Source: Polyangia bacterium (GTDB lineage Bacteria > Myxococcota_A > Polyangia > Polyangiales > JAUICN01). Taken from it: DNA of 64,000 nucleotides. Below are positions 12,414 through 52,761 of the stretch, piece by piece (position 1 is the stretch's first letter; each line of letters begins with the position of its first letter). The notes beneath the pieces were generated by a model. It did no database searches. It was given only the letters and a program-made list of their open reading frames with translations, and was not told where the DNA came from. Position numbers and translations under genes: made by a program. The stretch lies in the NCBI GenBank assembly GCA_030427835.1, contig JAUICN010000003.1, positions 21,867 through 85,866 on the forward strand. Reading direction: 5' to 3'.

Positions 12414-12451
12414 GGGCTCAATCCTTACGGGCGATCAGTGATAGTTGGAAA

Positions 12452-20989: not shown

Positions 20990-21119
20990 TTGAATCTAGA
21001 GCGGTTTTTTGCATCATAGATGATCGGGCGGCACACCGCTGGACCAGTGCCCAGTTCATCCTGGGGCAGTCGGGTTTGTACGCGATCGGGGGTTCAACAT
21101 CGCAGCCAGTCGTCGTACA

Positions 21120-23156: not shown

Positions 23157-23183
23157 TCGCGCGAGTCGGCGGTTTGACGATCC

Positions 23184-25790: not shown

Positions 25791-25850
25791 AACGGCGTGG
25801 ATCACTAATTTCCTGTTCCCCAGAGCGAGTCTTCTCCCCTCAGATATTCT

Positions 25851-29659: not shown

Positions 29660-29699
29660 CTGCGCGCGACTTTGCCATTACCCTGCTAAGCTCAAGCCG

Positions 29700-31742: not shown

Positions 31743-31745
31743 ACG

Positions 31746-33545: not shown

Positions 33546-33546
33546 G

Positions 33547-33710
33547 CTAGACCGCTTCGGGATTTAGATGAGTGAATGATCGGTACCCAGCGGAGCCTCC
33601 AGGACACGACAAGCGACGAAGCAATGTAGAACATTGTTGAGGAGGTTGGAGTGTCATGGTGGGTTTGCGGGGTGCCGAGGGTCGATCAGATAAATCCCGA
33701 AGCGGTCTAG
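33547..33710. repeat. 164-bp element bounded by perfect 20-bp inverted repeats (MITE-like or long-range RNA stem)
   Basis: CTAGACCGCTTCGGGATTTA (33547..33566) and TAAATCCCGAAGCGGTCTAG (33691..33710) are exact reverse complements enclosing 124 bp. The element fills the only sizeable gap in the operon. Confidence 0.8.
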
Positions 33711-33711
33711 A

Positions 33712-37051: not shown

Positions 37052-37642
37052 CTAAAACACCCGTTCTGGAACGTAGACTATATCCCCAGCACGGAGGCCG
37101 GGGTCCTCTTCTCTGCCCTGGGAAACCGCATCCGCATTGACCCTGTAGCGTACGGTTTCACCTTGCTGATGTCGGGTGACCACGGTGGCCGCGCGGTTTG
37201 CAATCGCACTAAACCCACCCGCCAAGCTGATGGCCTGCACCACGGTCATCCCCGCGGTCAACGGGAACGTTCCAGGTCGGCTCACAGCGCCAAGTACGCT
37301 GACACGTTTCGAGCGGTACTCCTTCACCAATACCGAAACGTGGGGATTCGTGAGAAAACCACCATCTACCCAGGTTTTTGCAATGTGATCCGCAGCCTGT
37401 CCGGGATCAAGGCCGGCGACGATCAGAGAACCCACGAACGGTAGATGAACCGAGCCATCTGCCTCCACCATATAGGTTCCACCCAGGGCATCTTCTCCGT
37501 ACACGCGTACATCGAACACGTCACCGGTACCCAGGGTAGTATCGGTGGCTTCAATGGTCGTCGGGATCGTCGACGGCGAGGGAGGCGGCCCACAGGCCAC
37601 AAGAATCGCCGTGAAAAAGTGTATGGATACAACGCGCAGCAA
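37052..37642 (-). CDS. short outer-membrane polysaccharide export (OPX) lipoprotein, Poly_export + SLBB only
   Basis: GDVFDVRVYGEDALGGTYMVEADGSVHLPFVGSLIVAGL, VSVLGAVSRPGTFPL. ORF 37052..37909 overlaps the upstream gene. TTG 37642 gives M-LRVVSIHFFTAILVAC just after the upstream stop at 37656, but the start is uncertain. The protein ends right after the SLBB-like domain. Confidence 0.8.
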   Translation of the reverse strand: MLRVVSIHFFTAILVACGPPPSPSTIPTTIEATDTTLGTGDVFDVRVYGEDALGGTYMVEADGSVHLPFVGSLIVAGLDPGQAADHIAKTWVDGGFLTNPHVSVLVKEYRSKRVSVLGAVSRPGTFPLTAGMTVVQAISLAGGFSAIANRAATVVTRHQQGETVRYRVNADAVSQGREEDPGLRAGDIVYVPERVF

Positions 37643-37655: not shown

Positions 37656-38954
37656 CTAGTAAAAGACACGTAACCCGAGCCAACCCTCAAACTTGCTGAA
37701 GCCTGCTGGGTCTGGAAGCGTACCGGTAGGTGTCTCTCGAATGTACTCAAATGAGGTAAAATCTCCAGAATATCGGACGGTTGCCGTGGCAGCCAGCCAG
37801 TCAGAGAATCGGTATTCGGAACCAAGTTGTGCAAGAACCCGAACATCGTTACGGGTAGAGCTCCCAGTGATCCCAAGCGGCGTTCCAGACGGATCCAGGA
37901 GTGCGCCAAAAGAGTAGTAACCTGCAGACAGGTTCGCCCGCAGCATCAGAACACCTCCCACAAGCGAGGAAAGGTCCACAAAGGCACGATTGGCAGAACT
38001 GAATCCACCCGAATAGGAACTGGAGAAGTTCCTATCGAAGCCAAAGGACAGCGTACGGTTTGGGGACATCTGCATATTCACGGTGGCCCTTGCCACGACA
38101 GAGTCAAAGTCCTCAAGGGTACCGTAGAAGCCTGCCGCATACCCCACAAACACCGCGGCAGACATTTTACTGGTCAGAGCGCCACTCAAGCCAAGCCACG
38201 AGCTAATGCGCTGGTTGTCTGATAGCAATACCAAAGGAGTCGACGACTGGTTTGTATAGGTCATCAAATCCGCATCCACACGGTAGAGCAGTGCGGTTTG
38301 AGGCAGGAAGTTCCATGTGAGGCCCCCACGGAAACCATGGGTAGCGCTGTTCAAGTACTGAAAGGAACTGCTCTCAAAAAGATCGAGAAGAAGCTCGTAT
38401 CCCAAACTCGCCTGAAACATGTCCCCGGGCGTCGAAGCTTGCCCTGTAATGGAAAGACGGTTGTTGTGGTGTCCGTAGTTGTTATTGACTGCCCCAGGCT
38501 CTGTGAAAGGGCGAATCTCACGACTGTACACGTCCTGCAAGGTCAGTTGAAACCCCGAGCTTGGCTTGACCTCCCCCAACACGGAGGCACCAAGCGAAAC
38601 GTCGTTCCGGGTAGGTGCGTCTAAAAAGTAGTAGTAAGAACCAAACACACCGCCACGAAGGCTTGCTCGAGCTGTGGACTCCTCGTCGTTCCGTTCAGAT
38701 CCCAGCGTCGAAACAAACAGATGGGGACTTACGCGGAAGACCGGGCTAGATACCGCACCTGTATCGGAGTCTGAGTAAAAGACGTTGGAATCGTAACCCG
38801 CTTCCGCGCCTACGCCGGGATGCAACTCAAACTGCCGAAAACGAACTCCCATTCCCTCCGTCTGCTGACGATCGTCGAGCCAAGTTTGGGCTTGGGCTGT
38901 GAACCCAAGGGGGAGGATTACGAATCCGACAAGCGCAAGTGCAAACCACTTCAT
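37656..38954 (-). CDS. outer-membrane beta-barrel protein
   Basis: ORF trimmed to ATG 38954 (MKWFALALVGFVILPLGFTAQAQ signal). Gly/Ser/Tyr-rich alternating pattern. C-terminal WLGLRVFY. Confidence 0.7.
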   Translation of the reverse strand: MKWFALALVGFVILPLGFTAQAQTWLDDRQQTEGMGVRFRQFELHPGVGAEAGYDSNVFYSDSDTGAVSSPVFRVSPHLFVSTLGSERNDEESTARASLRGGVFGSYYYFLDAPTRNDVSLGASVLGEVKPSSGFQLTLQDVYSREIRPFTEPGAVNNNYGHHNNRLSITGQASTPGDMFQASLGYELLLDLFESSSFQYLNSATHGFRGGLTWNFLPQTALLYRVDADLMTYTNQSSTPLVLLSDNQRISSWLGLSGALTSKMSAAVFVGYAAGFYGTLEDFDSVVARATVNMQMSPNRTLSFGFDRNFSSSYSGGFSSANRAFVDLSSLVGGVLMLRANLSAGYYSFGALLDPSGTPLGITGSSTRNDVRVLAQLGSEYRFSDWLAATATVRYSGDFTSFEYIRETPTGTLPDPAGFSKFEGWLGLRVFY

Positions 38955-39076
38955 GTGACCGCATGTGGTAAAGCTCATGACCTGTAGGGCCTCGATTTGG
39001 AGATTGCCTTACGCATCGTTAATAGTCCAAACAATCTTCATCAAAGATACGTTTCCAGTTTGAAAAAGGATGCCCA

Positions 39077-39730
39077 TTAACCGGTCGGGCTCGCGGGTGC
39101 GGGAACAAAAGGAACCGTAATCGTGGGCAGCATGGGGCTCTCACCTATCTCAACATCGGGCGTAGACGGATCCACGGAGCTGGTGACATTGGTTTCTCCC
39201 GTTTCAAAAATATCGTTGCCGAGGCATTGATTGGCTTCCTGGTCTAGGACCTCACATCGTCGACCAAGCACGCTGATCACGGTGTATTCATGGTTGCGTC
39301 GACCTTCGTCCGCAGACTCCACTGCTTCAGTCAGCGATTGCACTCGATCCTGTAGGGTGCGCACTGTCGCATTCTGCTGATTCAGGGTGCTATTGAGACA
39401 AGCGGCCTTAATAACGTCGGCCTCATTTCGAGAACGGTCCAACATCCGCTGCACACGTCGGCTTTGCTGCTGACATCGATCCAAGATCCGAGATGCTTCC
39501 GTCTGCTGCTCGTTTGAGCCAGTGGCTGCTTGCTGACTCGCTTGGAGGGCGGCCTCGACGTTGTCCTGGGCGGACGCCACCCCAGGCGACGTTCCGAATA
39601 TCGATACCGAAAGAACCGCGATACCCAATCCCACACGCACCGATCTATTCGAAAACGCAAAACCCATAAACAGGGACGTTTTGTCGCTGAATTCCTTAGC
39701 CATGAATATCCCTCCCACGGCCGGGAACAA
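39077..39730 (-). CDS. secreted coiled-coil protein, hypothetical
   Basis: The internal ATG at 39667 gives MGFAFSNRSVRVGLGIAVLSVSIFGTSPGVASA/QD. Gln-rich helical region with 4 Cys. No family recognised. Confidence 0.5.
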   Translation of the reverse strand: MFPAVGGIFMAKEFSDKTSLFMGFAFSNRSVRVGLGIAVLSVSIFGTSPGVASAQDNVEAALQASQQAATGSNEQQTEASRILDRCQQQSRRVQRMLDRSRNEADVIKAACLNSTLNQQNATVRTLQDRVQSLTEAVESADEGRRNHEYTVISVLGRRCEVLDQEANQCLGNDIFETGETNVTSSVDPSTPDVEIGESPMLPTITVPFVPAPASPTG

Positions 39731-39903
39731 TAGTGAGGGTGTGAAATCCTGTCAAAGGAATACAACCCCGTTTCCGGCTCAACGCCGCGAGAATTTGAAT
39801 CGGCATCATGGAAACTCTGTTGCCCAGGGCCACGCTTCCATTCAAAGCGTCAGCTAGACTGGAATTTAGAGGTTTCCACCGCGACGGTTTCTGGCGTGTG
39901 AAA

Positions 39904-39938
39904 CCCCCTGAATCCCACCAAAAAGGGGGATTCAAGGG
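39904..39938 (-). terminator. stem-loop downstream of the GltG-like gene
   Basis: CCCCCTGAATCCC / GGGGGATTCAAGGG forms an ~11-bp stem with one bulge. On the minus strand it is followed by TTTCAC. It lies 39-73 nt after the stop at 39977. Confidence 0.45.
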
Positions 39939-39976
39939 AGGCAATCAACAAGGGTTTCTACCCCAAAACGTTCTAT

Positions 39977-41458
39977 CTAGCTCTGAGGAGCAAACACAAA
40001 CGGGTAAGCAAAGGTCACACTTCCGCCCTCAGGGCCCTCACGCCACCTCAAGCTGCGTACAACGCCCATGACACAGGTTCCCAGTCCAGGATCGTTTGTG
40101 GTGTTTTCCACCGCCCGAGCAGACGAAACGTTGCCCCGTTCCTGAATCGTAAACTCCACAACGACCTTCCCCGAAAGAGAGGGGTTGTTCCGTAGGGCAG
40201 TCTCGTAACAGCGGCGGAAGGCGCTTTGACGGCCTCGAATCATGCGTGTCACCTGGGACTGGTCAAAAATTCCTGCGCCTCCGATCTCATCTCCGGACTG
40301 GAAGGCAACCTTGCCGCGAATACGCCTCTCCTGAATGGCACCGCCTTCGGCTCGGGCCTTCGTCGCGTCTCCACCGGCAGCTCGTAAGCTTCCAAGATCG
40401 CCACCCTGCCCGCTACCTTCGCCCCCTGAACGGGTACGCAGTGAACCCGCCTGGGACGTAGCTACTCCTACACCTTCGGCCTGGGCCAAAACATCAGCCG
40501 CATTTCCGGTTACCGCTCCTCCCGCGAGCACGTCGCTCAGGGCACCGCCGTCCCCAAGGGCGCCAAGCAATAGGGCTTCCGCAGCCTGGGTGGCCTGTTC
40601 GGCAATGGCGGCTCGCGCCTCGGCGCTCTTTGCCGCCTGTTCCGCCGTAACCTCAGAAGCCTGGGAGGGAGTCTCCTTCACCTTTCGTTGTGGTTCAGCT
40701 TCTGCCACCTGGGTTTCTTCCTCTTCTTCCGTTTCTTCCTGTGTTTCCGGAGTCTCTTCCTCTTCCGGTGGCTCAGGTTCGTCGAGAATGAACTTGGCAA
40801 ACTCCTCAGGAATCTCTGCCATATCCCCCTTTACGGGCCAGTCAGAGCTCTCCAGATACACCACGAAGGCAAAAAAGGTCATGTAGGTGAACACCATGAA
40901 AGCGGTGAACAACCAATCGATACTCTTTGCAAATCCCCCTCGCACAGTCGCCGGCAGTTGGGGGCGAGGTTGCACTGGAGGAGGAGTAACAAACTGGAAA
41001 AGTAGTGTTGTAGCCCCAATGACCACCTTTCCACGGGAGCTATCGTTGAGCTTGATTTGCCAGTGGCTTCCAGCGTTTCGCGCACCACCAGAAGAACGAA
41101 GCTTCTTTAGATCCTGAACGCCCCCTGGAAGCGCCACACGGCCCTCCATGGCATCTGTGAAGTTCAGGATGTAGTCAGAGCCGACCAGCTGAAACAGCTC
41201 AAAGCGGGCTGGCAGCACCGATTCGTGAACAATAAAGTGGTTTTTCTCTGAAGTGCCCACAGCAACGGATTCGCGCTTTCGGATCAATCGCTCTTCCACG
41301 ATCTTTCCATTTTGAATCACGCCAATTCGAAGGATTTTTGGGCCACTCGGCGCCACACGAACGGCTTGCATGGCCATGGTCATGGCACCGGGTTTGCCGC
41401 CCTTGGGACCTGACTGTCCGGGATTTGAGGCGCTATCAGTAGAGGTGTCTGTGCTCAT
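39977..41458 (-). CDS. TonB-like bitopic protein with AgmX/PglI-type C-terminal domain (GltG/NfsG-like)
   Basis: ATG 41458 preceded by AAGGAG (ORF maximal start 41515). Cytoplasmic beta-rich N-domain, TM IDWLFTAFMVFTYMTFFAFVVYL, Glu/Ala-rich linker, C-terminal FRRCYETALRNNPSLSGKVVVEFTIQERGNV..CVMGVVRSLRW..FAYPFVF. Confidence 0.7.
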   Translation of the reverse strand: MSTDTSTDSASNPGQSGPKGGKPGAMTMAMQAVRVAPSGPKILRIGVIQNGKIVEERLIRKRESVAVGTSEKNHFIVHESVLPARFELFQLVGSDYILNFTDAMEGRVALPGGVQDLKKLRSSGGARNAGSHWQIKLNDSSRGKVVIGATTLLFQFVTPPPVQPRPQLPATVRGGFAKSIDWLFTAFMVFTYMTFFAFVVYLESSDWPVKGDMAEIPEEFAKFILDEPEPPEEEETPETQEETEEEEETQVAEAEPQRKVKETPSQASEVTAEQAAKSAEARAAIAEQATQAAEALLLGALGDGGALSDVLAGGAVTGNAADVLAQAEGVGVATSQAGSLRTRSGGEGSGQGGDLGSLRAAGGDATKARAEGGAIQERRIRGKVAFQSGDEIGGAGIFDQSQVTRMIRGRQSAFRRCYETALRNNPSLSGKVVVEFTIQERGNVSSARAVENTTNDPGLGTCVMGVVRSLRWREGPEGGSVTFAYPFVFAPQS

Positions 41459-41635
41459 CGGTCGCGTCACTCCTTGTGGCTCCCTACACCCGTCCAGTGA
41501 AGGGGGGAACTCCACACTTTCCCGGAGACGGTATCACAACTCGAAGTCAGATTGAAAAGTGATTCGAGCACCTCTGGGCCATAGGCGTTGTCCAAAGTGG
41601 GTCAAAACACCGCAGGCCACCACTGTGCTCGGGAG

Positions 41636-42241
41636 CTAAGGGTCCTGGCAAAGGCCGTGGATCTGCTCGTACACCCGCCGAACGCCCCGCAACAGGTAAC
41701 CTGATCGGTTTTTCAGTAGTGCAAGAGATCCCCAGGCCACAACTACCGTGGCCATACCCATGGCAGCAGATCGCAGGGCTTCACCAAGAAGAGACGGAGC
41801 ATCATTTACGGCCCCCTCAGGCGATCCTGAGCGCCAAGCAAGCATTGGAAACACGGAAAAGAGCGCAAATAAAAAACCCAAATGAAGCCCAATGCTACCC
41901 GCGGTTTTCAAAAAACGGAGGCTTTGCTCAAGCTCCAGGCGCGTATGGCGGAACTGATGGCTGGCCAGCCGTTGCAATCGTTGCGGATGGGGAAGCCCGG
42001 GAAGGTGGTCCACCAGTGGTTCAAGAAACACCCCGATCCACGTTCGAGAAACTCCGGAAAGCAGCTGGCCCACAGGACTCACCGATCCCGGCTCTGTGCC
42101 CGCCGTCACCAAGATCGCATCGCGAAGGGGTTTCGAAAGCGTCTGCACATGCCAGGCCTTTTTTCCGAACAGCAACCACGTCCGATACCCAGCCGAGGCT
42201 GCGACCGCGACAAGCAACAGAACCTGAACCCAAATAAACAC
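41636..42241 (-). CDS. divergent MotA/TolQ/ExbB-family 3-TM protein
   Basis: Three TM segments in TolQ topology. LELEQSLRFLKTAGSI and APSLLGEALRSAAMGM..LALLKNR align by eye with E. coli TolQ LENLETHIPFLGTVGSI and APGIAEALIATAIGL..AYNRLNQR. Confidence 0.5.
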   Translation of the reverse strand: MFIWVQVLLLVAVAASAGYRTWLLFGKKAWHVQTLSKPLRDAILVTAGTEPGSVSPVGQLLSGVSRTWIGVFLEPLVDHLPGLPHPQRLQRLASHQFRHTRLELEQSLRFLKTAGSIGLHLGFLFALFSVFPMLAWRSGSPEGAVNDAPSLLGEALRSAAMGMATVVVAWGSLALLKNRSGYLLRGVRRVYEQIHGLCQDP

Positions 42242-42264
42242 GTGTAAGATAAAAGGTGAAGGAC

Positions 42265-42528
42265 TTAAAACGGGTCGGAGCGAATCGTCTTGACCACCTT
42301 AAGGAGAAAGCTGGTACGCAGGTCCAGGACCTCGTAGCCCAGATTGGATCGGTTAAGAATATAGAAGGCGTTGGGTTTTTGTACCCTTCCCTCAATCTTG
42401 ATCTCGTCCAGCTGAATCACCCGGGGACCACGACGGCGTTGGGCATGCCCTACCCCGAAAGACACTGCAGAGGACAAGAACAAAACCAACAGGATAAATG
42501 CCCCTCGGCCTGCCAAACTTGTTTTCAT
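42265..42528 (-). CDS. small secreted/membrane-anchored protein (GltF/NfsF-sized)
   Basis: 87 aa. N-terminal hydrophobic AFILLVLFLSSAVSFGV. ATGA overlap with the upstream gene (42525..42528). Confidence 0.5.
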   Translation of the reverse strand: MKTSLAGRGAFILLVLFLSSAVSFGVGHAQRRRGPRVIQLDEIKIEGRVQKPNAFYILNRSNLGYEVLDLRTSFLLKVVKTIRSDPF

Positions 42529-43988
42529 TGCGATCCCTCCGCTTCCGTCTGACCGGCGTCACCGGACGCCGCTTCCGAAGCCGCCCGTTCTGCGTCCCGC
42601 GCAGCCCTTGCTGCGGCCCGCTCTTGACGAACCCGATCCCGTTCAATGCGCTTTTTCTCACGTTTCACGGCGCGGTCCAGATCCTCCAAGTACCCTTCAG
42701 AAGGGTCATCGCGAGGAAGACGTGGACCCATTTCATCCCGGTAGGTCTTAAACTCGTCCATGGCCTTCTCAAGCGCGCCCACTTGGTCTAGTCCTGGAAA
42801 CGCATCCCCAGCCGTCATGTACATCAGTCCGAGATTAAAATGTGCCTCGGGAAGCGGTGAGCGCATCTGGAGCGCGCGATCGAAACTAGATTTTGCCTCG
42901 CTCCATTGGCTATTCGCGCGATGGGCGTCGCCCAAGTTTAGGTGAACTTCCACAAGCGTTGGGGAAAGTTGAACGGCCGCCTTGAACTGAATGAGTGCGT
43001 CTTCGTAGTTCGCACCCGACAACAACTGATTTCCAAGAGCAATGCGTGCTTCCACATAGTCGGGCCGAAGTTGAACGGCCCGACGGAACTCTGAAAGAGC
43101 TTCCCGGAGCCGTCCAGTTTCGTCGAGCAACATTCGCCCCTTCAGATAATGAAGCTCAGCTTCAGACTCATCCACTTCCAGGGCCTGGGCAATCACAGCC
43201 TCAGCCAACTCCTTGCGTCCAAGTCGCAAACTCGCTTTTACGATTGCAAGCATGGCAGGAACGAAACGCTCATCCCTCTGCAACGCGAAGCGCGCAGCTT
43301 CCATGGCTTCTTCTGGTTTGCCAGCCTGGACTAGAACCACGGCCTTCAGGGCCTGAAGATGGAGGTTGCGTTGCCACCGTTGGGCAAGGGGGGTGACCAC
43401 GGCCAGGGCCTGATCCGGGTTGTTTTGCCGGAGATGAATAAGTGCAATCCCCTCCGCCGCCCTCTCATAGTCCGGCTGCATACTCAGAGTTCGTTCGTAG
43501 TACTGAAGCGCGGTTGCGTTATCTCCTCGGCGATCGGCTACCACACCCAGGTTGTAGGTGGCCTTAAACGCTTCCGCGTCCAGGGCCAAGGCCCTTTCAA
43601 ACTGAGATTGGGCGGCATCCAGATTGCCGTTGCGAGACGCTTGGATCCCCCGTTGGTACGCCGCCCGCGCCGTGGCACTCATGGAATGGCGAGGTGGTAA
43701 GGGTTCACCCGATTCAGATTCAGGCCGACCCCAGGGGCTCTCCTGTTCCCCCTCCTCGGCCTTCAGATCTTCGTCTTCCTTTTCCACGAGATCTTCCGCG
43801 ACCACTGTTTGAGCAGTTTCATCCTGGTGTTCCACACTCCCTGGAGGAGCTTCCAGTACTTCGGTTTCTCCCCCCTGGGATTCCTGGGGCACAGGTGGAG
43901 GAGTCTCGTCCGCAGGCGCCTTACCGCCGCAGGCGATTCCGCCAAGGACCGACCACACCATTGCGCTCAATATTAAAAGTATTCGCAT
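42525..43988 (-). CDS. TPR-repeat lipoprotein (GltE/NfsE-like)
   Basis: MRILLILSAMVWSVLGGIAC lipobox, acidic linker, then about 9 TPR units (e.g. AFKATYNLGVVADRRGDNATALQYYERTL). Confidence 0.65.
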   Translation of the reverse strand: MRILLILSAMVWSVLGGIACGGKAPADETPPPVPQESQGGETEVLEAPPGSVEHQDETAQTVVAEDLVEKEDEDLKAEEGEQESPWGRPESESGEPLPPRHSMSATARAAYQRGIQASRNGNLDAAQSQFERALALDAEAFKATYNLGVVADRRGDNATALQYYERTLSMQPDYERAAEGIALIHLRQNNPDQALAVVTPLAQRWQRNLHLQALKAVVLVQAGKPEEAMEAARFALQRDERFVPAMLAIVKASLRLGRKELAEAVIAQALEVDESEAELHYLKGRMLLDETGRLREALSEFRRAVQLRPDYVEARIALGNQLLSGANYEDALIQFKAAVQLSPTLVEVHLNLGDAHRANSQWSEAKSSFDRALQMRSPLPEAHFNLGLMYMTAGDAFPGLDQVGALEKAMDEFKTYRDEMGPRLPRDDPSEGYLEDLDRAVKREKKRIERDRVRQERAAARAARDAERAASEAASGDAGQTEAEGSQ

Positions 43989-46900
43989 TAGGGGCCCTCC
44001 ACATGCTCAAGGGACGGTGGGGATACTCCCTGTGGAATATCCAGGGTGCGGCCACGGGGAGCCCGTTTAAACTCACCCGGAGTGTAAGCAACAAAACTTG
44101 GGTCCGCGCGCTGGGCTTCCGCGATGCACTCCGCGATACGTTCCTCTCCGTAGGCCTGGAGGCGATCCACCGCGATCTGTGTGTATTCGTCATCCAAGTT
44201 ACCCGCCCGCGCGGCCCGTGCCGCCAGGGCGTATCGAGCTACCGCAAAGCATTCTATCGGACGAACCTTTTCATCCAGCACCTGTTGAACGGATCCCTCT
44301 ACCTGAAATGCAATGTCGTCCCGTTGCTCGGGAGTAAGCCGGCGAAGTTGCTTTTGCATGTCCTGGGGTAGCGTGAACGGCGTGTTCAGGATGGCACGGG
44401 CCAGTACCTCATAGACCCTTCCCTGCCGCACAAAGGCCGCAATGGTCCAGGTGGGCCGCCTGTAGTCCATGACTGGCGCGTACCCGGCGACAATTTCCTG
44501 GCCCGACGCCGCCCCCGCATCAATCTGCTCCTTGATGCTGTTGACATAGTCCTGAAGCGTCTTTGGGCGCCCTGGATTGATAGAAAAGGACTCAAAACCC
44601 TTAATGGCATCGTCTACCAGGATGAACTTCGCGTTGGCCGCATATTCCGCGCCAATAGAACCAGGCTCCTGGCCAGAACGGGCAAACGCACTCACCACTT
44701 TTTCGAGAGCCTTACGATAGTCACGAATGCGCTTTGGGTTCGGACGAGGGCCCAACATTTTCCGCCGAGATTCCGCAATCCTCCAGTACGCAAGCACCAC
44801 AAGCTCACCGGCCGCTTGGTCACCTTCGTACCTGGAAATAAACGAATTCATCTCCTTAATCGTCGTGATCGGGTTTCCCTGCTTGTAGGTCATCTCCGCA
44901 ACCCGGTAATAGGCATCACGTTGGGCACCGGGTTCTCGCAATAGAACCGCCGCTTCGCGGTAGTAACTGGCCGCCTTCTTATACTGTTGAAGACGTTCTA
45001 GAATAATCGCCGCGTTAATGAGCGCGCCTTCCCGTTTCTCAACAATGTTGGGGTCCGTGGAGCCACGAAACCGTTGCGAATCTGCCAGTAGGCGATAGTT
45101 ATCCACGGCACGTTCAAAGTTGAAAAACCGGTTCGAGTTGAACGCAAGACGGAAGTAGGCATTGGCCAGGATGGCATTGAGTTTCTGCTGTTCACCCGCG
45201 TTCTCCGCCTGCCTGGGGCCCACCTCGTCTGTGATCCGTTGATAAAGGCGGGCCGCCGACTCAAAACGGCTCGTTTTCTCCAGGGCCGTGGCCGCATACT
45301 CGAGGGCAATGGGGGCCTGCGGATCGTCGGGGTTGTCGTTTACGGCATTCACCAGCACCGTCGCCGCACGCTCATACAACCGCAGTTGTTCCTCTCCAGA
45401 GGCTTCTTCTGCCTTGGAATAAATTCGAAGCGCTCGCCGGTAACGCAATGCATTCAAGTCTCCCATACGAATGCAATGGGGCTCATCGGCATTGGCTGGA
45501 TCGTCGCAGCTGACGTTCTCTGTGGGTGCAGTCGAGAACGTGCATTTACGTTCCCCCAACTCGTTGGCAAGCTGTTCCACCTTCAGTTCATCACCAAGAG
45601 TCACGGCCATGTTGCGTAGGCTCAACCACGCGAATCGGCCATTCTCGTTGGCCTGTTCTCCAGCGCAATGGTTCTCAAAAATACGGCGAAAACGCTCCTC
45701 TGCCTGGGGCCAGTAACCGTAAAAATACAACAGCAAGGTGTTGTTGTAGTCGTACGCGTCGCGAACACCCTCCGCGTCACCGGTGGCTTCCACACGTGCT
45801 AGGTAGAGTTCCCGCGCCTGAGCCAGCCGTTGTACCAAATCAGGCATGGGGACAGGGCGTACCGTCAAAGGCTCACCGGAGGGCGCCGGAGGTTCTTCTC
45901 GAACCACCAAGTCCCCCCGTTCCACCGCAGACTCCTGAATACGCCGAAGAGACTCCACAACACGTCGCGCAGATTCAGAGAGGTACGAGTCGTCCAAATT
46001 GGAATCACGCACAAGAGAGTACTGCGCTGCCGCAGCCTCGAAATCCTCAGACCAATAAAGGGCATCCGCCACGTTGTAACGGAGCTCGTAGGCCTGCGGA
46101 GTGTTTGGGTAACGTTCCAGGTAACCAGAATAGGCTTTGGCGGCCAACTGATACTGCCCACGAGCTTGCAAGCACAAATCCAAATCCCGTTGTTCCACAC
46201 ACATGCGGCGCAGGTTCTGGGCCTGTTGGTGATGGAATACCGCCGTTCCGATCAATGCGTTTTCCGCGAGTTCTTCGGCTGCGGTCTGTTCTGCCGGGTG
46301 GTCCACGTTGGCGTTCCACCACGTGCTTCCTTCCCCGTACTCACCCAACCGTGCTCGATACGCAATGGCCTGCTCCATCTCCTGGCTACGGGTATAGGCA
46401 CGGGCCACCATGTTGGTGATCTCGGGCGCACGTACGTGATTGGGAAAGCGATCCAACGCGAGCTGCCACACGGCAATGGCATCCGACAATTTGTTCTCGT
46501 CGAAATACACGTTACCGAGTTGAAAATAGACCTCTGGAGTCCAATCGCGATCCTGGGCAATGAGCTCCGCATCCTGCAAGCGTTGAATCCCGGTAGGCAT
46601 CTCTTCATAGGGGTCAGGGACCTGGTTTTCGTTCCAGTCGTCGTACGCCAACGCGATCGCAACGTACTGAAGCGCCTCGGGACGAAGCTCCGAACCCGCG
46701 CGGCCCGTGCGACGACGTTCCTCATCGGACCAATCCACCAACTGTGCAAAATGACGAATCGCCTCGGGGTATCGGCTTGCGCGGTAGTAGGCCCAGGCAA
46801 CCTTGTAGAGCGCGAGGTTGAAGTTCTTGTCAGCCCGGTCCTGCAAAATGCGTCGATAGGCGCTGATGGAAAGCTCCACCGCGTTGTCACCGCCGTAGTC

Positions 46901-47977
46901 ATCGAAATGATACTCGCCTACGCGAAACCAGGTTTCGCTCATGAACTTCGCGTCTGGGCGAACTGGAACACACACGCGGTAAGGGTCCACATTGGAAGCA
47001 GGCGCTGCAGCGTCCGCGCCACCCATGTCCAGCGTAAGCGCGGGGTATGCCGGCGGAGGTGGATCAGGACGCAGGGCGTCGGCCTCTCTTTTACGGGCGA
47101 TTTCGTCCGCGTCATAGCTGTAATGATTGGAACAAACAAGAGACAGCCAGGCGATCACAGCCTCCTCTCGCTCGTTCATTTCATTCAAGCAATAACCAAT
47201 AAGATAATAGACGCCGTCCAGTCGATCGTACTGGGGAAACCGAGAAATCAAGGTGCGGTAGAGCTCAATGGTGGGGCTAAAAATCGGGGTACTACCCATC
47301 CCCTCTGGAAGTTCTTCTCCGCGGGCCATGGCTTCCTGGGCCTCAGCAAAGGCGTCCTGGAACTCAATCGCACTCCGTTCAAAGTAAAGCTCCCCTAACC
47401 GAAACATGGCGTCTGGAGTAAACGTGGGATCGTTGGGGTAACGGGATACAAATCGCTCAAAAAGACGGATCGCATTGTCCCGCGCCTCGTTCTGAAGCGC
47501 GTCTTCCTGTCGAATTTGGCGGGCATAATAGTGGGACCGACCCCGTTGACGCCGTTGAAACTCACGCTTCACCACCGCGATCACGGAGTCACGGTAGGAA
47601 CGACCAAAATCACGAAAGCGCTCTACCTCCTGCTCCATTTCTTGAAGTGCCAGGATTTCCGCCGCCGTGGGCCGTGGACGCGAGTCCTCGATGCGCCGAT
47701 CGGTGGTGTCTAAAAACGTGGGCAGCGCGGGAGCCTCCGCTACGGCCTCCGCATCCTGCCATGGATTGACTTCGGCATCGCTCTCCACGTCATCGGTGGA
47801 CTCGCCTTCGCTGGCGGGTTCAGCCTCTTCAGTCCCTGAAACGGGCGCTTCGTTGAGAGAATCCGGCGCCACCTCGGGTCCAGGCTGCGCATGGACCGCT
47901 AAGGAAACGAGCAAAATGCTGCCCATGAAGGCGAACAGCCCCAGTACTGCGGCACGGATCGGCGATACGTTGCCCAT
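43988..47977 (-). CDS. giant TPR-repeat periplasmic protein (GltD/NfsD, AgmU-like)
   Basis: 1329 aa. Signal peptide AVLGLFAFMGSILLVSLAVHA. TPR-like helices throughout (e.g. LALYKVAWAYYRASRYPEAIRHFAQLV). Confidence 0.65.
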   Translation of the reverse strand: MGNVSPIRAAVLGLFAFMGSILLVSLAVHAQPGPEVAPDSLNEAPVSGTEEAEPASEGESTDDVESDAEVNPWQDAEAVAEAPALPTFLDTTDRRIEDSRPRPTAAEILALQEMEQEVERFRDFGRSYRDSVIAVVKREFQRRQRGRSHYYARQIRQEDALQNEARDNAIRLFERFVSRYPNDPTFTPDAMFRLGELYFERSAIEFQDAFAEAQEAMARGEELPEGMGSTPIFSPTIELYRTLISRFPQYDRLDGVYYLIGYCLNEMNEREEAVIAWLSLVCSNHYSYDADEIARKREADALRPDPPPPAYPALTLDMGGADAAAPASNVDPYRVCVPVRPDAKFMSETWFRVGEYHFDDYGGDNAVELSISAYRRILQDRADKNFNLALYKVAWAYYRASRYPEAIRHFAQLVDWSDEERRRTGRAGSELRPEALQYVAIALAYDDWNENQVPDPYEEMPTGIQRLQDAELIAQDRDWTPEVYFQLGNVYFDENKLSDAIAVWQLALDRFPNHVRAPEITNMVARAYTRSQEMEQAIAYRARLGEYGEGSTWWNANVDHPAEQTAAEELAENALIGTAVFHHQQAQNLRRMCVEQRDLDLCLQARGQYQLAAKAYSGYLERYPNTPQAYELRYNVADALYWSEDFEAAAAQYSLVRDSNLDDSYLSESARRVVESLRRIQESAVERGDLVVREEPPAPSGEPLTVRPVPMPDLVQRLAQARELYLARVEATGDAEGVRDAYDYNNTLLLYFYGYWPQAEERFRRIFENHCAGEQANENGRFAWLSLRNMAVTLGDELKVEQLANELGERKCTFSTAPTENVSCDDPANADEPHCIRMGDLNALRYRRALRIYSKAEEASGEEQLRLYERAATVLVNAVNDNPDDPQAPIALEYAATALEKTSRFESAARLYQRITDEVGPRQAENAGEQQKLNAILANAYFRLAFNSNRFFNFERAVDNYRLLADSQRFRGSTDPNIVEKREGALINAAIILERLQQYKKAASYYREAAVLLREPGAQRDAYYRVAEMTYKQGNPITTIKEMNSFISRYEGDQAAGELVVLAYWRIAESRRKMLGPRPNPKRIRDYRKALEKVVSAFARSGQEPGSIGAEYAANAKFILVDDAIKGFESFSINPGRPKTLQDYVNSIKEQIDAGAASGQEIVAGYAPVMDYRRPTWTIAAFVRQGRVYEVLARAILNTPFTLPQDMQKQLRRLTPEQRDDIAFQVEGSVQQVLDEKVRPIECFAVARYALAARAARAGNLDDEYTQIAVDRLQAYGEERIAECIAEAQRADPSFVAYTPGEFKRAPRGRTLDIPQGVSPPSLEHVEGP

Positions 47978-50340
47978 TACTCTCCTCCACCCGACTGAAG
48001 ATCCATGATCTCCTGGTATTCATCCTGTAAGGCTTGAAGTTCTCCGGATCGCTCCCTGTTCAAGGATTCCACCCGCTGCCGGTGTTCCTCCCGACGAGCC
48101 CAGGAAACGTCGATTTCACCCACATCGGCCTTAAGAACCAAATCGTAGAACCGTTTTCGAACGCGGTTGAAGCTGTTGTAGGTGACATAGGTGGCCACAT
48201 CTTCGGCCTCCTGCTCCAAGGCATGCAGCGCTTCTGTGTACACAGAAAGGCGTTCCGATTCGTCCTCAAGAACCACACGCATGGTCTGTGTACGTTCCGA
48301 AACAACGTCGTTGATGAACTGGTCATATTCATCCAGGGACTGCTGGAGGGAATCCACCCGATCGAAAGTCACATCTACGTTAGCAGGAATTTGGCCTCGA
48401 CTACGAACGAGTTCCCTCTCTTGGGCCACCAACTGACGGTGCTCTTCACGGGTCTGGGCGTCTTTCTGGTATCGAATATCACCCACTCCCACCTGCAGAC
48501 GCCCTACCTCAACGGCGCGGCGAAGCTCTGTCACTCTTCCCTGAAAATGTTCCAGCGCTCCCCGCTGAAGAGCGAGGCTCTCACGCACAGCCTGAACATC
48601 CTCTTCAGTCACCGACCCATGGCCAAGAGAATCCTCCACAAAGCGCTCAGTGGCCACTACCTGAGCCTCCATACCCAACAGGACAATTTCCAACTGGCCC
48701 AGTTCACGCTGCAACCTGCGGTAGCGACTCAAAAGGACTTCGTTGCGTTCGTCAAACTGATCCCTTGCGACCGGCATAGTGGCGAGCGATGCTTCGAGTC
48801 TTTGTCGCTTGGCTCGAACACGCCCGAGCTCGCCGGACCCCGCAACTCCATTGCCCGCCAAAGATATCAATTGCTGTTGGGCTTTGGATAGACGAGTTCG
48901 AAGCGCCACGGTTCGTTCCCGCTGCCGCCGTAGATCCGGAAACACATTGACCGCATTTGGGGAATTGATGGCGCCATCCAATCTGGAGATGAGGCCTGAG
49001 GTTTCCGTGACCAACTGACGCACCTTCGACGTGTCCGAAAGCAGCGTTAGCGCACGGTTCATGTCTTCCTCAAATGTGGCCCATCGACGTGCCAACGGGG
49101 GCAAGAACTCTTCCACGTCAAACAGTTGTAGATTGCTGCGAACCATTTCGCGAAAGTGAAGACGGGGGTCCTCTTGACCCGCCACCATGGCGTTGAGTTC
49201 ATCTCTCACAGGTTGAAACTGAACGCGAACCTCTTGGTACACCTCCTCCGCGTCGTGCAGCCGACCATTTCGCAACAGCAGCCCCGCACGAAGAAGTTTG
49301 CCGTCGGGGATATAGCGACTTCCTGGAGCGGCGACCGTAAGCACTTCCAGCGCCCGTTCCGCTCTCGTGGAATCACCCAAACGAATGTAGGCCCATGCGA
49401 TCTCATAGAGGGCTTCGTCAAAGTTGGGAGAGGAGCGTGGAATGGACTGATACGCTTCGATGGCCTTCTCAATGCGATCCAACTCATAGAATAATCGACC
49501 CAGGGCCAGCTGTGCCAGCTCCACCACCCGCCTGGACTCAAGACTTGACGTGGGGGTTCTTAAAACGCGCTCAAACGCTTCCACGGCCTGGGGAAGTTCC
49601 CCCTTAAAGATGTGAATCACACCCACAAAGTACCGGGATTGGGCGTGGTAGGGGCTGCCCTCTGGCACCGCCATAAAGGCTTCCCTGGCCGATTCGAGGC
49701 CCGCCAGATCCACTCCCTCGGAGAGGTGATCCCCACGGATGGCATCATCGGGTGGCACGGCCCGATTGAAGAGGTATTTGGCACGGTAATAGGTGGTTAC
49801 CGCTTCAACTTCTGTGGGTGGCAGCTGGCTCAGTTCAGCAAAGTACTCTTCTACCCCATCAAAATCCCTGGTGTGAATGGCGATTTCGATGAGACGCCCA
49901 AGCACGCGCTGAACGTAGGGTTGGAAACGGACTTCACCCGCGTGGCTTAAGAACTGGCGAAACCGGGACCGAGCCCCGTAGTAGTCCCCCGCTCGATACA
50001 GGGAATCACCCAGCAAAAATAGGCCATCTGGAAAGGCCCGGTGCCCCTCGTGGTGATCCACGATGTCGGTCAAAATGATGCTTGCTCGAACGTAGTCCTG
50101 CAGGCGATAGAAGAGCTCCCCATCGCTCAGCCGTTCCTCCACGTAGGTATCGCTACGCATGGCCGACCGGGTGCGAGCGATGCGAACCCGCTTCAGGTTC
50201 TCCACCTCACCGGCAACGTCGGTGAGTTCCCGTCCTACCCGAGTGAGAGTCTGGGCGCGAACAAACGTCGACGTCGGGCAAAGTAATATGCCGACAGCAA
50301 GCGTTTGCAGCAGCCACAGCGGCGGCCGCCCCGTGGCCAT
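47977..50340 (-). CDS. secreted TPR plus long coiled-coil protein
   Basis: Signal peptide LWLLQTLAVGILLCPTSTFVRAQ. TPR-like N-half (ALYEIAWAYIRLGDSTRAERALEVL). About 350-aa heptad-rich C-half. Confidence 0.6.
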   Translation of the reverse strand: MATGRPPLWLLQTLAVGILLCPTSTFVRAQTLTRVGRELTDVAGEVENLKRVRIARTRSAMRSDTYVEERLSDGELFYRLQDYVRASIILTDIVDHHEGHRAFPDGLFLLGDSLYRAGDYYGARSRFRQFLSHAGEVRFQPYVQRVLGRLIEIAIHTRDFDGVEEYFAELSQLPPTEVEAVTTYYRAKYLFNRAVPPDDAIRGDHLSEGVDLAGLESAREAFMAVPEGSPYHAQSRYFVGVIHIFKGELPQAVEAFERVLRTPTSSLESRRVVELAQLALGRLFYELDRIEKAIEAYQSIPRSSPNFDEALYEIAWAYIRLGDSTRAERALEVLTVAAPGSRYIPDGKLLRAGLLLRNGRLHDAEEVYQEVRVQFQPVRDELNAMVAGQEDPRLHFREMVRSNLQLFDVEEFLPPLARRWATFEEDMNRALTLLSDTSKVRQLVTETSGLISRLDGAINSPNAVNVFPDLRRQRERTVALRTRLSKAQQQLISLAGNGVAGSGELGRVRAKRQRLEASLATMPVARDQFDERNEVLLSRYRRLQRELGQLEIVLLGMEAQVVATERFVEDSLGHGSVTEEDVQAVRESLALQRGALEHFQGRVTELRRAVEVGRLQVGVGDIRYQKDAQTREEHRQLVAQERELVRSRGQIPANVDVTFDRVDSLQQSLDEYDQFINDVVSERTQTMRVVLEDESERLSVYTEALHALEQEAEDVATYVTYNSFNRVRKRFYDLVLKADVGEIDVSWARREEHRQRVESLNRERSGELQALQDEYQEIMDLQSGGGE

Positions 50341-51191
50341 TACCGAGCCTCCTCAGATTCCCCGTCGGACTGACCTTGACCACCTTCGATACGTTCCACG
50401 TACCGAACCGCAGGCCGCTCCTCCAGAGGTGCGGTAGGCCCGCCCTTTTCGTATCCGATCACACGGAGCGTGACCGATTTACCCTCGGGCGCATTGAATG
50501 CGTAGGTGGACCGAACCTTAAACCGATACCCTTTCAGGTAGGAGAAAATACCGTAGCCATGACCACGGTACTCCAAATTTACAGTGAGCACGTGTTCGCC
50601 GGGCACGATACTGCCGTTGTAAACATCGAACTGTTCCCGTTCGCCAAACTCCCCTTCTTCATCGGCTTTGCTGAAAATGGGTGCGCCATCCAGGGCGTAG
50701 ACCGCTTTCACCAAACGATAGGACGAAGACATGCGATTTTCGTGTTGGATAACTGCCTGGGAACCGGCCACGACACCCTGCAACACGGTTTCAGCAAGAA
50801 GCGACAATCGCGCCTTCGACCGAAATACCTGCTCCTTGAGTTCGTTGATCCGCTGTTCCAGATCCCGCAGCCGCACCGCGTAGGTACCCGCATCCACCTC
50901 GGGAACTTCCACCGGGGTTTCCACGTCCGCGGGCCCTGCCGCGGCGGCAGCTTCCCCACCCGCGCCCGACGGATCAGCGGCATCAGCCCCATCGGCAGGA
51001 TCTCCGGGGTCGTCAAACTCGGATCCTCCTGCCCCTGAAACCCCAGCAGAATCTTCCGCAGAAGCCGTGGTTGACGGCTCCTCCGTGGATTCCACAGGAG
51101 GATCAGCCTGGGCCTGTACGGACCCGAGACAGATCAGATTAGTAAACAGCGTGACAAGAACCGCAACGGCGATAGGCATTCGCTTCCCCAC
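50340..51191 (-). CDS. secreted protein: acidic low-complexity region, coiled coil, beta-rich C-domain
   Basis: GTG start. Signal MPIAVAVLVTLFTNLICLGSVQAQA. C-domain YRLVKAVYALDGAPIF..HVLTVNLEYRGHGYGIFSYLKGYRFKVRSTYAF. No family recognised. Confidence 0.55.
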   Translation of the reverse strand: MGKRMPIAVAVLVTLFTNLICLGSVQAQADPPVESTEEPSTTASAEDSAGVSGAGGSEFDDPGDPADGADAADPSGAGGEAAAAAGPADVETPVEVPEVDAGTYAVRLRDLEQRINELKEQVFRSKARLSLLAETVLQGVVAGSQAVIQHENRMSSSYRLVKAVYALDGAPIFSKADEEGEFGEREQFDVYNGSIVPGEHVLTVNLEYRGHGYGIFSYLKGYRFKVRSTYAFNAPEGKSVTLRVIGYEKGGPTAPLEERPAVRYVERIEGGQGQSDGESEEAR

Positions 51192-51254
51192 TCCAGCTTC
51201 CCCTCTCTTGAGTACAGCGCTCGCGGCACCTACGCTGAACCAAACGTACCGCAG

Positions 51255-51283
51255 CTTATATCAATAGCCCTAGAGGTGGTCAA
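51255..51283 (-). promoter_or_regulatory. sigma-70-type promoter for the Glt/Nfs-like operon
   Basis: Minus strand reads TTGACC (51283..51278), 17 nt, TATAAG (51260..51255), about 60 nt upstream of the GTG at 51191. Confidence 0.4.
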
Positions 51284-51318: not shown

Positions 51319-52761
51319 TTGGAGAATTCCTCAAATCCAGATGCACCACGGGCAGCTCAGCGGATCCTCGTCATCGACGACGAACGCAATATCGCTCGTT
51401 CTCTCAAAATGACCTTGGATAGCTCGGGGTTTCTGGCCACCACAGCATCCTCCGGTGAGGAGGGATTGCAGATGCTCAAGGGGCCGTCGCAGCACGCACC
51501 TTTTGATATGGTCCTTCTCGATGTTCGTTTGCCGGGTAAAAGTGGCCTCGAGATCCTGAAAGAAATTCGATCTGGGGTTCCGAGCCATACGCTTCCGGTG
51601 GTGATGATCTCGGGGCACGCGTCCATCCAAGACGCGGTCCAGTCGGTCCAATCGGGAGCCAACGACTTTCTGGAAAAGCCCCTGGATCGCGGCCGGGTCA
51701 TCGTCACAGTGAAGAACGTCCTGAAGGCTGCGTCCCTGGAAAGGGAGGTGCGTCAGTTGAGGGTCGAGGGGCCGAAGCGGGATCGCATCCTGGGCCAAAG
51801 CCCCCAGGTAAGAGAGCTCGTGGACACGATACAGCGTGTGGCGGCCACCGACACCCGAGTCCTGATTCTCGGTGAAAGTGGTACGGGCAAGGAACTGGTG
51901 GCCCGGGCCGTTCATCGCCTTGGGCGGCGTGCCGAAAAGCCTTTTGTCCAGATCAACTGCGCCGCGATTCCTAGCGATCTTGTGGAAAGTGAGCTGTTTG
52001 GGTACGAAAAAGGAGCGTTTACGGGGGCCAACGAACAACGCAGGGGGCTGTTCGAGGCCGCCCATGGGGGAACCCTATTCCTGGACGAAATTGGTGAAAT
52101 GGACCTTGCGGCCCAATCGAAGTTGCTGCGTGTACTCGAAAACCGTGTGCTTTACCGTGTGGGAGGTCGGAGTGCGATCCCCGTGGACGTGCGTATTGTG
52201 GCGGCCACCAATAGAAATCTCCTCCGGGATGTCAGTGACGGGAGGTTTCGCGAGGATCTTTACTACCGGCTGAGTGTCCTCCCTCTGCAGGTTCCACCGC
52301 TTCGGGATCGCATACAGGATATTCCAGTTCTTGTGGAAGCCTTCCTATCCGAGTTCTGTGCCCGCAACGGATTTCCGCGGAAAAAAGTGGCTCCAGAGGT
52401 CTGGCCGCTTCTACAGGGCTACCAATGGCCAGGGAACATCCGGGAGCTGCGCAATATTGTGGAACGAATGGTGGTCCTCAGCGCGGAGGAAATTGGATAT
52501 TCCGACGTGCCCGGCGTGCTTGACCCGGCCCAATCCGACAGCGCAAAACGCGTTCAGCATGCCATTGGCCCGACCGCGTCCCTACGGGAGGTTCGGGACG
52601 GTGCGGAGCGGGCCCACGTGCTCCAGGCGCTCAAACGAGGTGACTGGAACATTTCAAGAACGGCAACCAGCTTGGGTGTGGAACGCACCCATTTGCACAA
52701 GAGGATCCGAGCGCTGGGCATTGAGCGCGAAGATACTGCCCCTGCCAAAAACTTGTCCTAG
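51319..52761 (+). CDS. sigma-54-dependent response regulator (NtrC family)
   Basis: Receiver domain (ILVIDDE.., [13 protein letters not shown]). AAA+ domain ([23 protein letters not shown]). C-terminal HTH. TTG start. Confidence 0.92.

Follow-up and report, generated by a model that had tools for sequence, protein, structure and literature searches.

Only two of the Glt-type complexes of myxobacteria have known jobs: Glt, in gliding, and Nfs, in the spore coat. The G4 and G5 paralogues and the widespread 'core complex' have been left without an assigned function since 2011. Here we analyze a Glt-like gene cluster of a Polyangia bacterium (contig JAUICN010000003.1, assembly GCA_030427835.1). 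It lies on the minus strand of a stretch of 64,000 nucleotides (hereafter the window), next to genes for a putative polysaccharide exporter of the outer membrane.

In the Agl-Nfs system, the Exo polymer, once exported by a Wza-type system, is carried over the surface together with the Nfs complex by a proton-driven motor, and AglR binds both GltG and NfsG (Wartel 2013, PMC3858216). An ancestral 'core complex' operon with the order C-D-E-x-AglR-AglQ-AglS-G occurs in Geobacter, gamma- and betaproteobacteria, and Methylibium (Luciano 2011, PMC3169522). The G4-type class has a C protein of ~800 amino acids (aa), a D protein of 1100-1430 aa, an E protein of ~450 aa, an F protein of ~85 aa, and a short G protein (~450-510 aa) without an FHA domain (Luciano 2011, PMC3169522). 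Its members are Myxococcus xanthus MXAN_1919-1923, Stigmatella STAU_2684-2688, Sorangium sce5940-5945, and Haliangium Hoch_6494-6498 (PMC3169522). The function of G4 is not known, and a polar MXAN_1922 mutant glides normally (Luciano 2011, PMC3169522).

WzaB (MXAN_1915), an OPX protein (for outer-membrane polysaccharide export), and WzpB (MXAN_1916) make up the end of the biosurfactant polysaccharide (BPS) pathway at the outer membrane. The OPX gene of WzaB in M. xanthus was described as orphan-like (Islam 2020, PMC7310880), and MXAN_1915 was treated as outside any polysaccharide gene cluster (Perez-Burgos 2020). In Sandaracinus, wzaB forms one contiguous block with wzc, wzy, and wzx of the BPS pathway.

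In the window, the Glt-like genes are followed on the same strand by WzpB-like and WzaB-like genes. We observed homology for each part, two promoters, and a gene order that has been conserved across Polyangiales, Myxococcus, and Stigmatella. The gene cluster itself is another example of an already catalogued kind. What appears to be new is the conserved G4-WzpB-WzaB linkage, both conserved promoters, a family of TolQ-like relics, and the family of the first protein of the cluster (g283). In published work on WzaB, WzpB, and BPS (including Islam 2020, Saidi 2022, Mellouk 2026, and Perez-Burgos 2020), we found no mention of Glt-like neighbours.

Glt family membership and the G4 class

The occurrence of Glt family matches was determined with NCBIfam models (gene coordinates in Table 1). 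Protein g787 matched GltC with an E value of 1.1e-28 (100 bits, cut-off 450) over residues 69-396, and g487 matched GltE with 1e-33 (117 bits, cut-off 225). The small protein g87 gave a weak match to CglF, which is the same as GltF (E = 0.06). Protein g512 matched GltG with 1.3e-48 (166 bits, cut-off 650) over model positions 191-647 of 650. In it, a cytoplasmic N-domain is followed by a single transmembrane helix, a linker of acidic/Ala type, and a C-terminal domain of the AgmX/PglI (TonB_C-like) kind, for which the myxo_SS_tail model gave 90 bits against a cut-off of 40. The GltJ model matched only this shared C-terminal domain, and there was no Pfam match for an FHA domain in g512. Since the GltC, GltE, and GltG scores are far under the equivalog cut-offs, the window proteins should be paralogues and not orthologues of the gliding proteins. 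The giant tetratricopeptide repeat (TPR) protein g1329 matched only the TPR models of YbgF and BamD in NCBIfam, as did MXAN_1922; its strongest curated match was YbgF/CpoB of Tol-Pal, with 88 bits against a cut-off of 90. No GltD model of NCBIfam was matched by g1329 or by MXAN_1922.

These results bear out the initial annotation, made from the letters of the DNA, which had placed the cluster in the Glt/Nfs family and had proposed such a profile comparison: four products matched Glt family models, and the AgmX/PglI domain was above its cut-off. The same annotation had found the composition unusual, had called the two leading genes unassignable, and had taken the missing GltA/B/K and AglQ/S genes as a sign of divergence. 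In fact, just this composition is the norm for G4-type paralogue clusters (Luciano 2011 tables). As to the leading genes, g787 is GltC-like and g283 is indeed without a Pfam or NCBIfam family.

No ORF (open reading frame) of the cluster or of the 64-kb window matched GltA, GltB, GltK, GltH, GltI, or GltJ as a gene. The absence of GltA/B/K and of AglQ/S from the cluster was thus correctly seen, but in a G4-type cluster it is the normal state of the class and no mark of divergence. In Myxococcota the Agl motor is encoded away from Glt-type clusters, so the absence of AglQ/S is normal in that respect also.

The M. xanthus locus was reached from the OPX protein of the window, through Protein Data Bank (PDB) entry 9n9a, which has a sequence 100% identical to M. 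xanthus WzaB (P0121), and from there to the genomic context. For Myxococcus and Stigmatella this context was the 10-kb flank from wzaB, which ends inside the C gene. On one strand, the M. xanthus locus encodes proteins of 809, 1111, 495, 91, 447, 148 (cNMP-binding), 203, 421 (WzpB), and 204 (WzaB) aa, that is, MXAN_1923 down to MXAN_1915. We assigned it to G4 because the lengths equal those of MXAN_1923..1919 in Table S3 of Luciano 2011. The Stigmatella array encodes 785, 1109, 442, 82, 450, 215, 421, and 203 aa, corresponding to STAU_2688..2684 plus wzpB and wzaB.

Every window protein from C to Wza matched its positional counterpart in M. xanthus by blastp. Protein g1329 was 27% identical to MXAN_1922 (1111 aa) over 1180 aa (E = 1.5e-103), g487 was 29% identical to the G4 E protein (E = 2.7e-37), g87 was 42% identical to MXAN_1920 (91 aa; E = 4e-18), and g512 was 33% identical over its full length to MXAN_1919 (447 aa; E = 1e-62). 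The C-terminal half of g787 was 25% identical to MXAN_1923 (E = 6.7e-20), of which only the C-terminal part was compared. As a calibration, the M. xanthus G4 proteins were scored on the same models and gave values close to those of the window: 111 versus 117 bits for GltE and 161 versus 166 bits for GltG. Judging from the pairwise matches, sizes, order, and flanks, the window cluster is almost certainly the Polyangiales counterpart, in position and sequence, of the MXAN_1919-1923 type of G4.

One genome per species was scanned, which gave 218 relatives of the D protein, and full-length relatives with 55-64% identity were present in many metagenome-assembled genomes (MAGs) of Polyangiales; the locus counts given here and below use the best 80 of the 218. 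All of these 80 belong to Polyangiales, Sandaracinaceae, or Myxococcota MAGs, and their D proteins are 51-66% identical. In the related loci that were long enough to test, the gene order was strongly kept, a point for which the initial annotation had proposed a survey. The genes g283-C-D were present in 61/61 testable loci, and E-F-G stood in order in 48/49. The g217, WzpB-like, and WzaB-like genes followed in order within 6 kb of G in 34/41 loci, where the porin was present in 40 and the g217 homologue in 37 of the 41. The G4-WzpB-WzaB linkage also occurs in M. xanthus and Stigmatella. A few relatives had extra DNA within the cluster (L025, L050, L053, L078). In L050, F and G were separated by 2.8 kb, in which a 506-aa ORF lies; in L053 and L078 the g217 homologue was shifted to after wzp or wza.

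The first protein, g283, was the best conserved of the cluster: the C-terminal 60-80% of the protein is 57-87% identical across loci, mostly more than 65%. It consists of a signal peptide, an acidic disordered stretch, a long helix, and a beta-rich C-terminal domain. We found 2464 homologues, all annotated as 'hypothetical', which form 1583 clusters at 50% identity. Pfam matches on its relatives (New_glue, PEGA) were rejected as low-complexity noise. An AlphaFold2 model from a 36-sequence alignment was of low confidence (pLDDT, the predicted local distance difference test, 53), for which too close a likeness among the homologues is the probable cause. It suggests that a signal peptide and a disordered acidic stretch are followed by a helix of 40 residues and a domain with some seven beta strands; a Foldseek search with this low-confidence model against PDB returned nothing below E = 0.1. 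The position of g283 is that of the GltA/B-type barrels in other clusters, and the protein is without a C-terminal aromatic outer-membrane protein (OMP) signal. Some g283 homologues hold the conserved domain four or five times in tandem, for example P0371 (862 aa) and P0408 (588 aa).

Two transcription units and the linked exporter

Two sigma-70-type sites, P1 and P2, precede g283 and g217, respectively. P1, TTGACC-N17-TATAAG at 51283-51255, had been noted in the initial annotation and was read there again. Its hexamers (TTGACC with TATAAG, TATTAA, or TATAAA) were found ~90 nt 5' of the first gene in 50/62 related loci, usually with a TGn extended -10 and with a freely variable spacer sequence. 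Consensus promoter-like sites occurred across the region at chance frequency overall, and P1 taken singly would be unremarkable. A consensus scanner omitted it, since the scanner demands T at the last -10 position and the -10 of P1 ends in G. Because the hexamers are kept far above chance while the spacer varies, this phylogenetic footprint argues for a real sigma-70-type promoter.

P2 was the best consensus match of the region (10/12), and TTGACA-N17-TATAAT or TATACT was present 5' of the g217 homologue in 39/45 relatives. The hairpin that the initial annotation had placed at 39904-39938 folds as a stem of ~12 bp directly after the seventh gene (folding z = -2.4 for an 87-nt stretch). The conserved P2 together with this hairpin indicates two transcription units. 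Unit 1 is P1 followed by g283-C-D-E-F-TolQ-like-G. Unit 2 is P2 followed by g217-wzp-wza; here it continues with a 1-nt gap between the wza stop and the GT4 start into sugar-synthesis genes (GT, glycosyltransferase).

All eight minus-strand ORFs of the initial annotation were found at their coordinates. The length of 493 aa for the seventh gene holds from the first ATG, and the overlaps TAATG (50338-50342, 47975-47979, 43986-43990) and ATGA (42525-42528) are exactly as noted. Seven of the eight belong to one unit; the 217-aa gene, which had been counted in the same row, has its own conserved promoter and heads the second unit. The array had been ended at 39077, and with that boundary the WzpB-like porin, the WzaB-like OPX, and the polysaccharide genes were missed, since the same-strand array runs further.

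A homologue of the divergent NtrC-type activator (Table 1) was present upstream in 44/50 loci. Given this conserved activator, a sigma-54 promoter was sought 5' of the first gene and rejected: none was found in the window, and there were 7 weak matches in 61 loci. A second NtrC-type sigma-54 activator is encoded at 53964-55313 (-), and homologues of both activators occur near the cluster in most relatives. A protein with an MshEN domain, which binds cyclic di-GMP, is encoded at 53067-53933 (-) and recurs in or beside the cluster in relatives (L085:17982-19067; L004, L010, L014, L043, L047, L054). Its gene separates the GltG-like gene from the g217 homologue in some of them and comes after wza in others. 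The slot between G and the 203-aa gene is filled in M. xanthus by a cNMP-binding protein (cyclic nucleotide-binding; 148 aa) instead. The recurring MshEN and cNMP-binding neighbours suggest control by nucleotide second messengers.

Unit 2 begins with g217, a protein with conserved cysteines whose homologues in Myxococcus and Stigmatella are 203-215 aa long. It is 30% identical to the M. xanthus 203-aa protein (MXAN_1917 by numbering; E = 4.6e-11, blastp). No Pfam family matched g217 at the cut-off, and the profile of its family found no match in PDB.

The next protein, p440, is 25% identical to WzpB (MXAN_1916; E = 3e-10, blastp). It ends in GLRVFY, which is OMP-like, versus RLSVTY in WzpB. 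A relative gave a faint BBP2_2 porin match, and the profile of the p440 family had no match in PDB.

Wza starts probably at TTG 37642, with the signal peptide MLRVVSIHFFTAILVAC followed by G, and has a lipobox; Pfam detects Poly_export, SLBB, and SLBB_2 domains. Over its whole length it could be aligned with PDB 9n9a, a 'Polysaccharide export protein' (phmmer, 5.1e-36), and it was 41% identical to WzaB (204 aa; E = 6.6e-41, blastp). As the alignment reaches the last residue of WzaB, there is no room for an outer-membrane helix (Wza_C), which makes it a class-3 OPX protein. The C-terminal Phe-Phe motif of WzaB was reported to bind WzpB (Mellouk 2026, PMC12819527). Wza of the window ends in VPERVF versus VPESFF in WzaB, with only the last Phe kept.

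As wzaB is in Sandaracinus, wza is contiguous with polysaccharide genes in the window. Two relatives that were inspected also had sugar-polymer genes after wza, one with PNPT and GT4 and the other with methyltransferase, NAGPA, and DegT. The M. xanthus WzcB has the same architecture as the Wzc of the window, a PCP-2a (class 2a polysaccharide co-polymerase) with fused kinase (Islam 2020, PMC7310880).

The region 19682-37050 of the window is a large Wzx/Wzy-type polysaccharide locus. Besides the genes of Table 1, its content includes a UDP-sugar dehydrogenase, a Polysacc_synt_2 dehydratase, a second Wzy-like protein, and several glycosyltransferases. An 868-aa fusion of an O-antigen-ligase/Wzy_C membrane domain with C-terminal TPR repeats is encoded at 23184-25790 (+). 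No Wzx flippase was identified among the window ORFs scanned.

Table 1. Features of the Glt-like cluster, the exporter genes, and their surroundings in the window
Feature	Position	Strand	Description
g283	50340..51191	-	283 aa maximum; 279 aa from Met5, the start and length of database protein P0241
g787	47977..50340	-	GltC-like periplasmic protein; N-terminal half TPR, C-terminal half coiled coil
g1329	43988..47977	-	Giant periplasmic TPR protein, GltD-like
g487	42525..43988	-	TPR lipoprotein, GltE-like
g87	42265..42528	-	Small secreted protein, GltF/CglF-like
g201	41636..42241	-	Divergent, degenerate TolQ/ExbB/AglR-like protein; three transmembrane helices
g512	39977..41515	-	GltG-like; 512 aa maximum; 493 aa from first ATG at 41458
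g217	39077..39730	-	Secreted coiled coil, four Cys; 217 aa maximum; probably 208 aa from ATG at 39703
p440	37656..38978	-	WzpB-like outer-membrane beta-barrel porin (predicted)
wza	37052..37642	-	WzaB-like class-3 OPX lipoprotein; 196 aa from TTG at 37642
Polysaccharide genes after wza	28202..37050	-	GT4, GT2, Wzy-like, Bac_transf phosphoglycosyl transferase, DegT aminotransferase, GT2, others (Pfam)
Wzc-like protein	25851..28205	+	PCP-2a co-polymerase with fused tyrosine-kinase ATPase; Wzz, GNVR, AAA_31 matches
NtrC-type enhancer-binding protein	51319..52761	+	Divergent; Response_reg, Sigma54_activat, HTH_8 matches
Promoter P1	51255..51283	-	Sigma-70 type, TTGACC-N17-TATAAG with TGn extended -10
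Promoter P2	39727..39755	-	TTGACA-N17-TATTGT
Hairpin 3' of g512	39904..39938	-	Stem of ~12 bp, then UUUCAC; likely terminator or attenuator between the units

Elsewhere in the window, the housekeeping operon rpsP-KH-domain protein-rimM-trmD is encoded at 10658-12724 (-), which indicates that the window is chromosomal. At 6136-8902 (+), two enzymes dependent on pyridoxal phosphate (PALP) lie on either side of a 91-aa ORF, and a JAB-domain protein comes next, a layout that resembles sulfur-carrier-protein-dependent synthesis of cysteine or thio-compounds. An extracytoplasmic function (ECF) sigma factor and then a FecR/zf-HC2 anti-sigma protein are encoded at 60787-62915 (+), adjoined by an ABC exporter at 58147-60060.

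Possible function and rival explanations

The initial annotation had recognized a TolQ-like gene in the cluster. This holds at the profile level. Alone, g201 matched Pfam MotA_ExbB with E = 0.0047 (17.1 bits), below the gathering score of 22.9, and tblastn with g201 found no matches in the relatives; its kinship was seen only by collecting ORFs by slot and comparing profiles. A three-helix ORF of 180-220 aa occupied the same F-G slot in 34/65 loci, and in the remaining loci less than ~100 nt, and mostly no more than 36 nt, lay between F and G. Searched against PDB, a profile of 30 slot-mates had TolQ (6.8e-6) and ExbB (1.5e-4) as its top seven matches, and 11/30 slot-mates matched MotA_ExbB singly (best 2.9e-6). 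With a mean column identity of 32%, the g201 family is, by its profiles, TolQ-like but fast-evolving. Its place in the cluster leads us to infer that g201 is what remains, in degenerate form, of a motor subunit embedded in the ancestral core operon. By comparison with AglR, which binds GltG and NfsG, it may have persisted as a partner of the G protein helix in the membrane.

The best explanation of the locus as a whole, which we consider probable on balance, is that G4 is a motor-coupled periplasmic scaffold working with a polysaccharide export channel, the two being encoded as co-conserved units. For the functional coupling of G4 to the exporter, taken by itself and drawn by analogy, our judgement is evenly balanced. 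In such a scheme, the GltC-, GltD-, and GltE-like TPR proteins would fill the periplasm. The GltG-like protein of the inner membrane would span the periplasm with its C-terminal AgmX/PglI domain, in the style of TonB or TolA. By analogy with Agl-Nfs/Exo, its drive would come from a motor that uses the proton-motive force and is encoded elsewhere (AglRQS-type or an M2-type paralogue), and the TolQ-like protein would be its docking partner in the membrane. The TPR scaffold would couple the movement of the motor either to the translocon of OPX and porin or to the polymer as it emerges. In this way the polymer would be set free, spread, or placed on the cell surface.

A more specific proposal, which we offer as a tentative possibility, is that G4 serves the WzaB/WzpB class-3 translocon as an energy-coupled partner in the periplasm. 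Its TonB-like G domain and its TPR scaffold would act on the porin, on the OPX ring, or on the polymer as it emerges, and would thus open, move, or clear the exit site; the TolQ-like gene would be a motor relic.

Several observations weigh against a scaffold coupled to the exporter. The functional link is drawn from the conserved neighbourhood only, separate promoters and a hairpin divide the two units, and the published WzaB-WzpB-WzcB complex model works without further parts. Myxococcus, Stigmatella, and roughly half of the related loci lack the TolQ-like gene, and the TolQ-like protein has lost the residues that align with the TolQ channel threonines. In the HMMER alignment, the 'GTV' threonine of TolQ falls on a column with Ala in 17 and Val in 8 of the 30 slot-mates, and the 'ATA' threonine falls on a hydrophobic one (V/M/L/I/F). 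We take these two threonines to be Thr145 and Thr178, channel residues in E. coli TolQ; a conserved Pro is presumably lost too. No partner gene of the TolR/ExbD type was found in the 64-kb window, and together with the lost threonines this means that any motor is encoded elsewhere. In none of the related loci did the sugar-synthesis genes after wza (glycosyltransferase, Wzy) have a sequence counterpart. Given these non-conserved genes and the Bac_transf enzyme, the polymer need not be BPS itself.

It could be held that G4 and WzpB/WzaB are neighbours with unrelated functions, G4 being a Tol-Pal/TonB-like system for envelope maintenance or transport beside an orphan OPX/porin pair. The conserved promoter of each unit and the hairpin between them fit this, as do the near-cut-off YbgF/CpoB match of g1329, the TonB_C-like domain of G, the TolQ-like g201, and the place of MXAN_1915 outside polysaccharide gene clusters (Perez-Burgos 2020). 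Against it, there is no TolB, Pal, or TolR in the window, and the order G-g217-Wzp-Wza is kept in 34/41 Polyangiales loci and in Myxococcus and Stigmatella, though the genes beyond wza differ completely. A neighbourhood kept this widely across Myxococcota usually means a shared function, and we consider unrelated functions unlikely.

Both of the characterized Glt-type machines were also considered. The C, D, E, F, and G homology in Glt order, and the speculation that expanded core complexes support gliding (Luciano 2011, PMC3169522), would be consistent with a divergent Agl-Glt apparatus for gliding motility. This is highly improbable, since all three equivalog scores are far under their cut-offs, the genes for GltA, B, H, I, J, and K and an FHA match in G are missing, and the M. 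xanthus counterpart is G4, where the MXAN_1922 mutant glides normally. Nor do we give much credence to a spore-coat machine of the Nfs type with Exo/MASC-type export. The joining of a Glt-like complex with Wza-type export recalls Nfs with Exo, and NfsC-D-E-F-G have the same order. However, the positional counterpart is MXAN_1919-1923 and not nfs (MXAN_3371-3378), there are no homologues of NfsA, B, or H, and G lacks the FHA domain of NfsG. Moreover, the OPX protein matches the WzaB sequence (5e-36) and its gene sits beside G4 as wzaB does, while WzaS (MXAN_3225) is encoded at another locus.

The linkage of G4 to WzpB and WzaB gives a paralogue so far without one a candidate role that can be tested in the tractable M. 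xanthus. If the proposed scaffold is real, Glt, Nfs, and G4 would all be motor-driven, and each would handle a single secreted polysaccharide (slime, spore coat, and BPS-type polymer, respectively), an energised component would be added to the models of class-3 OPX secretion, and loss of MXAN_1917 and MXAN_1919-1923 would give BPS-type phenotypes. If the coupling fails, the locus is a further copy of a catalogued paralogue cluster.

Comparison with described systems

Compared with the G4 cluster of M. xanthus, the window has the same gene order and sizes, and all five proteins from C to G match in sequence. Downstream, Myxococcus and Stigmatella have the same neighbours as the window: the 203-215-aa protein, WzpB, and WzaB. 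Between F and G the window has a TolQ-like gene, while Myxococcus and Stigmatella do not. Sorangium has a gene in this slot, sce5941, which is unlisted in the published table. The cNMP-binding gene between G and the 203-aa gene is present in M. xanthus and not in the window. The window array runs straight into synthesis genes, whereas in M. xanthus these are ~1 Mb away (Islam 2020, PMC7310880).

The cluster is also collinear with the core operon, with the TolQ-like gene at the position of aglR, between the E/x genes and G. The difference is that the window has no AglQ/AglS (TolR-like) genes, and its TolQ-like protein is degenerate at the channel-threonine columns.

The exporter resembles the WzaB-WzpB-WzcB translocon (Islam 2020, PMC7310880; Saidi 2022, PMC9603273; Mellouk 2026, PMC12819527). 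Both have a short lipidated OPX protein with no outer-membrane helix and, adjoining its gene, a gene for a protein of ~420-440 aa that is a beta-barrel in the described system and a predicted one in the window, and a PCP-2a Wzc with kinase is encoded nearby in the window. WzpB-family porins are 18-stranded beta-barrels, and p440 of the window is, by its sequence, a candidate member. The OPX C-terminus is -VF in the window and not -FF as in WzaB, and the initiating enzyme is Bac_transf versus PNPT in M. xanthus BPS.

The functional model is Agl-Nfs/Exo (PMC3858216), a paralogous C-D-E-F-G complex that handles a polymer exported in the Wza manner and is powered through the contact of GltG/NfsG with AglR. 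Nfs has the barrels NfsA/B, NfsH, and an FHA domain in NfsG; in the window, g283 is without an OMP signal, g217, which takes the place of NfsH, is without a family, and G is without FHA. The nfs and exo loci are apart in M. xanthus, whereas the Glt-like and OPX/porin genes are contiguous in the window.

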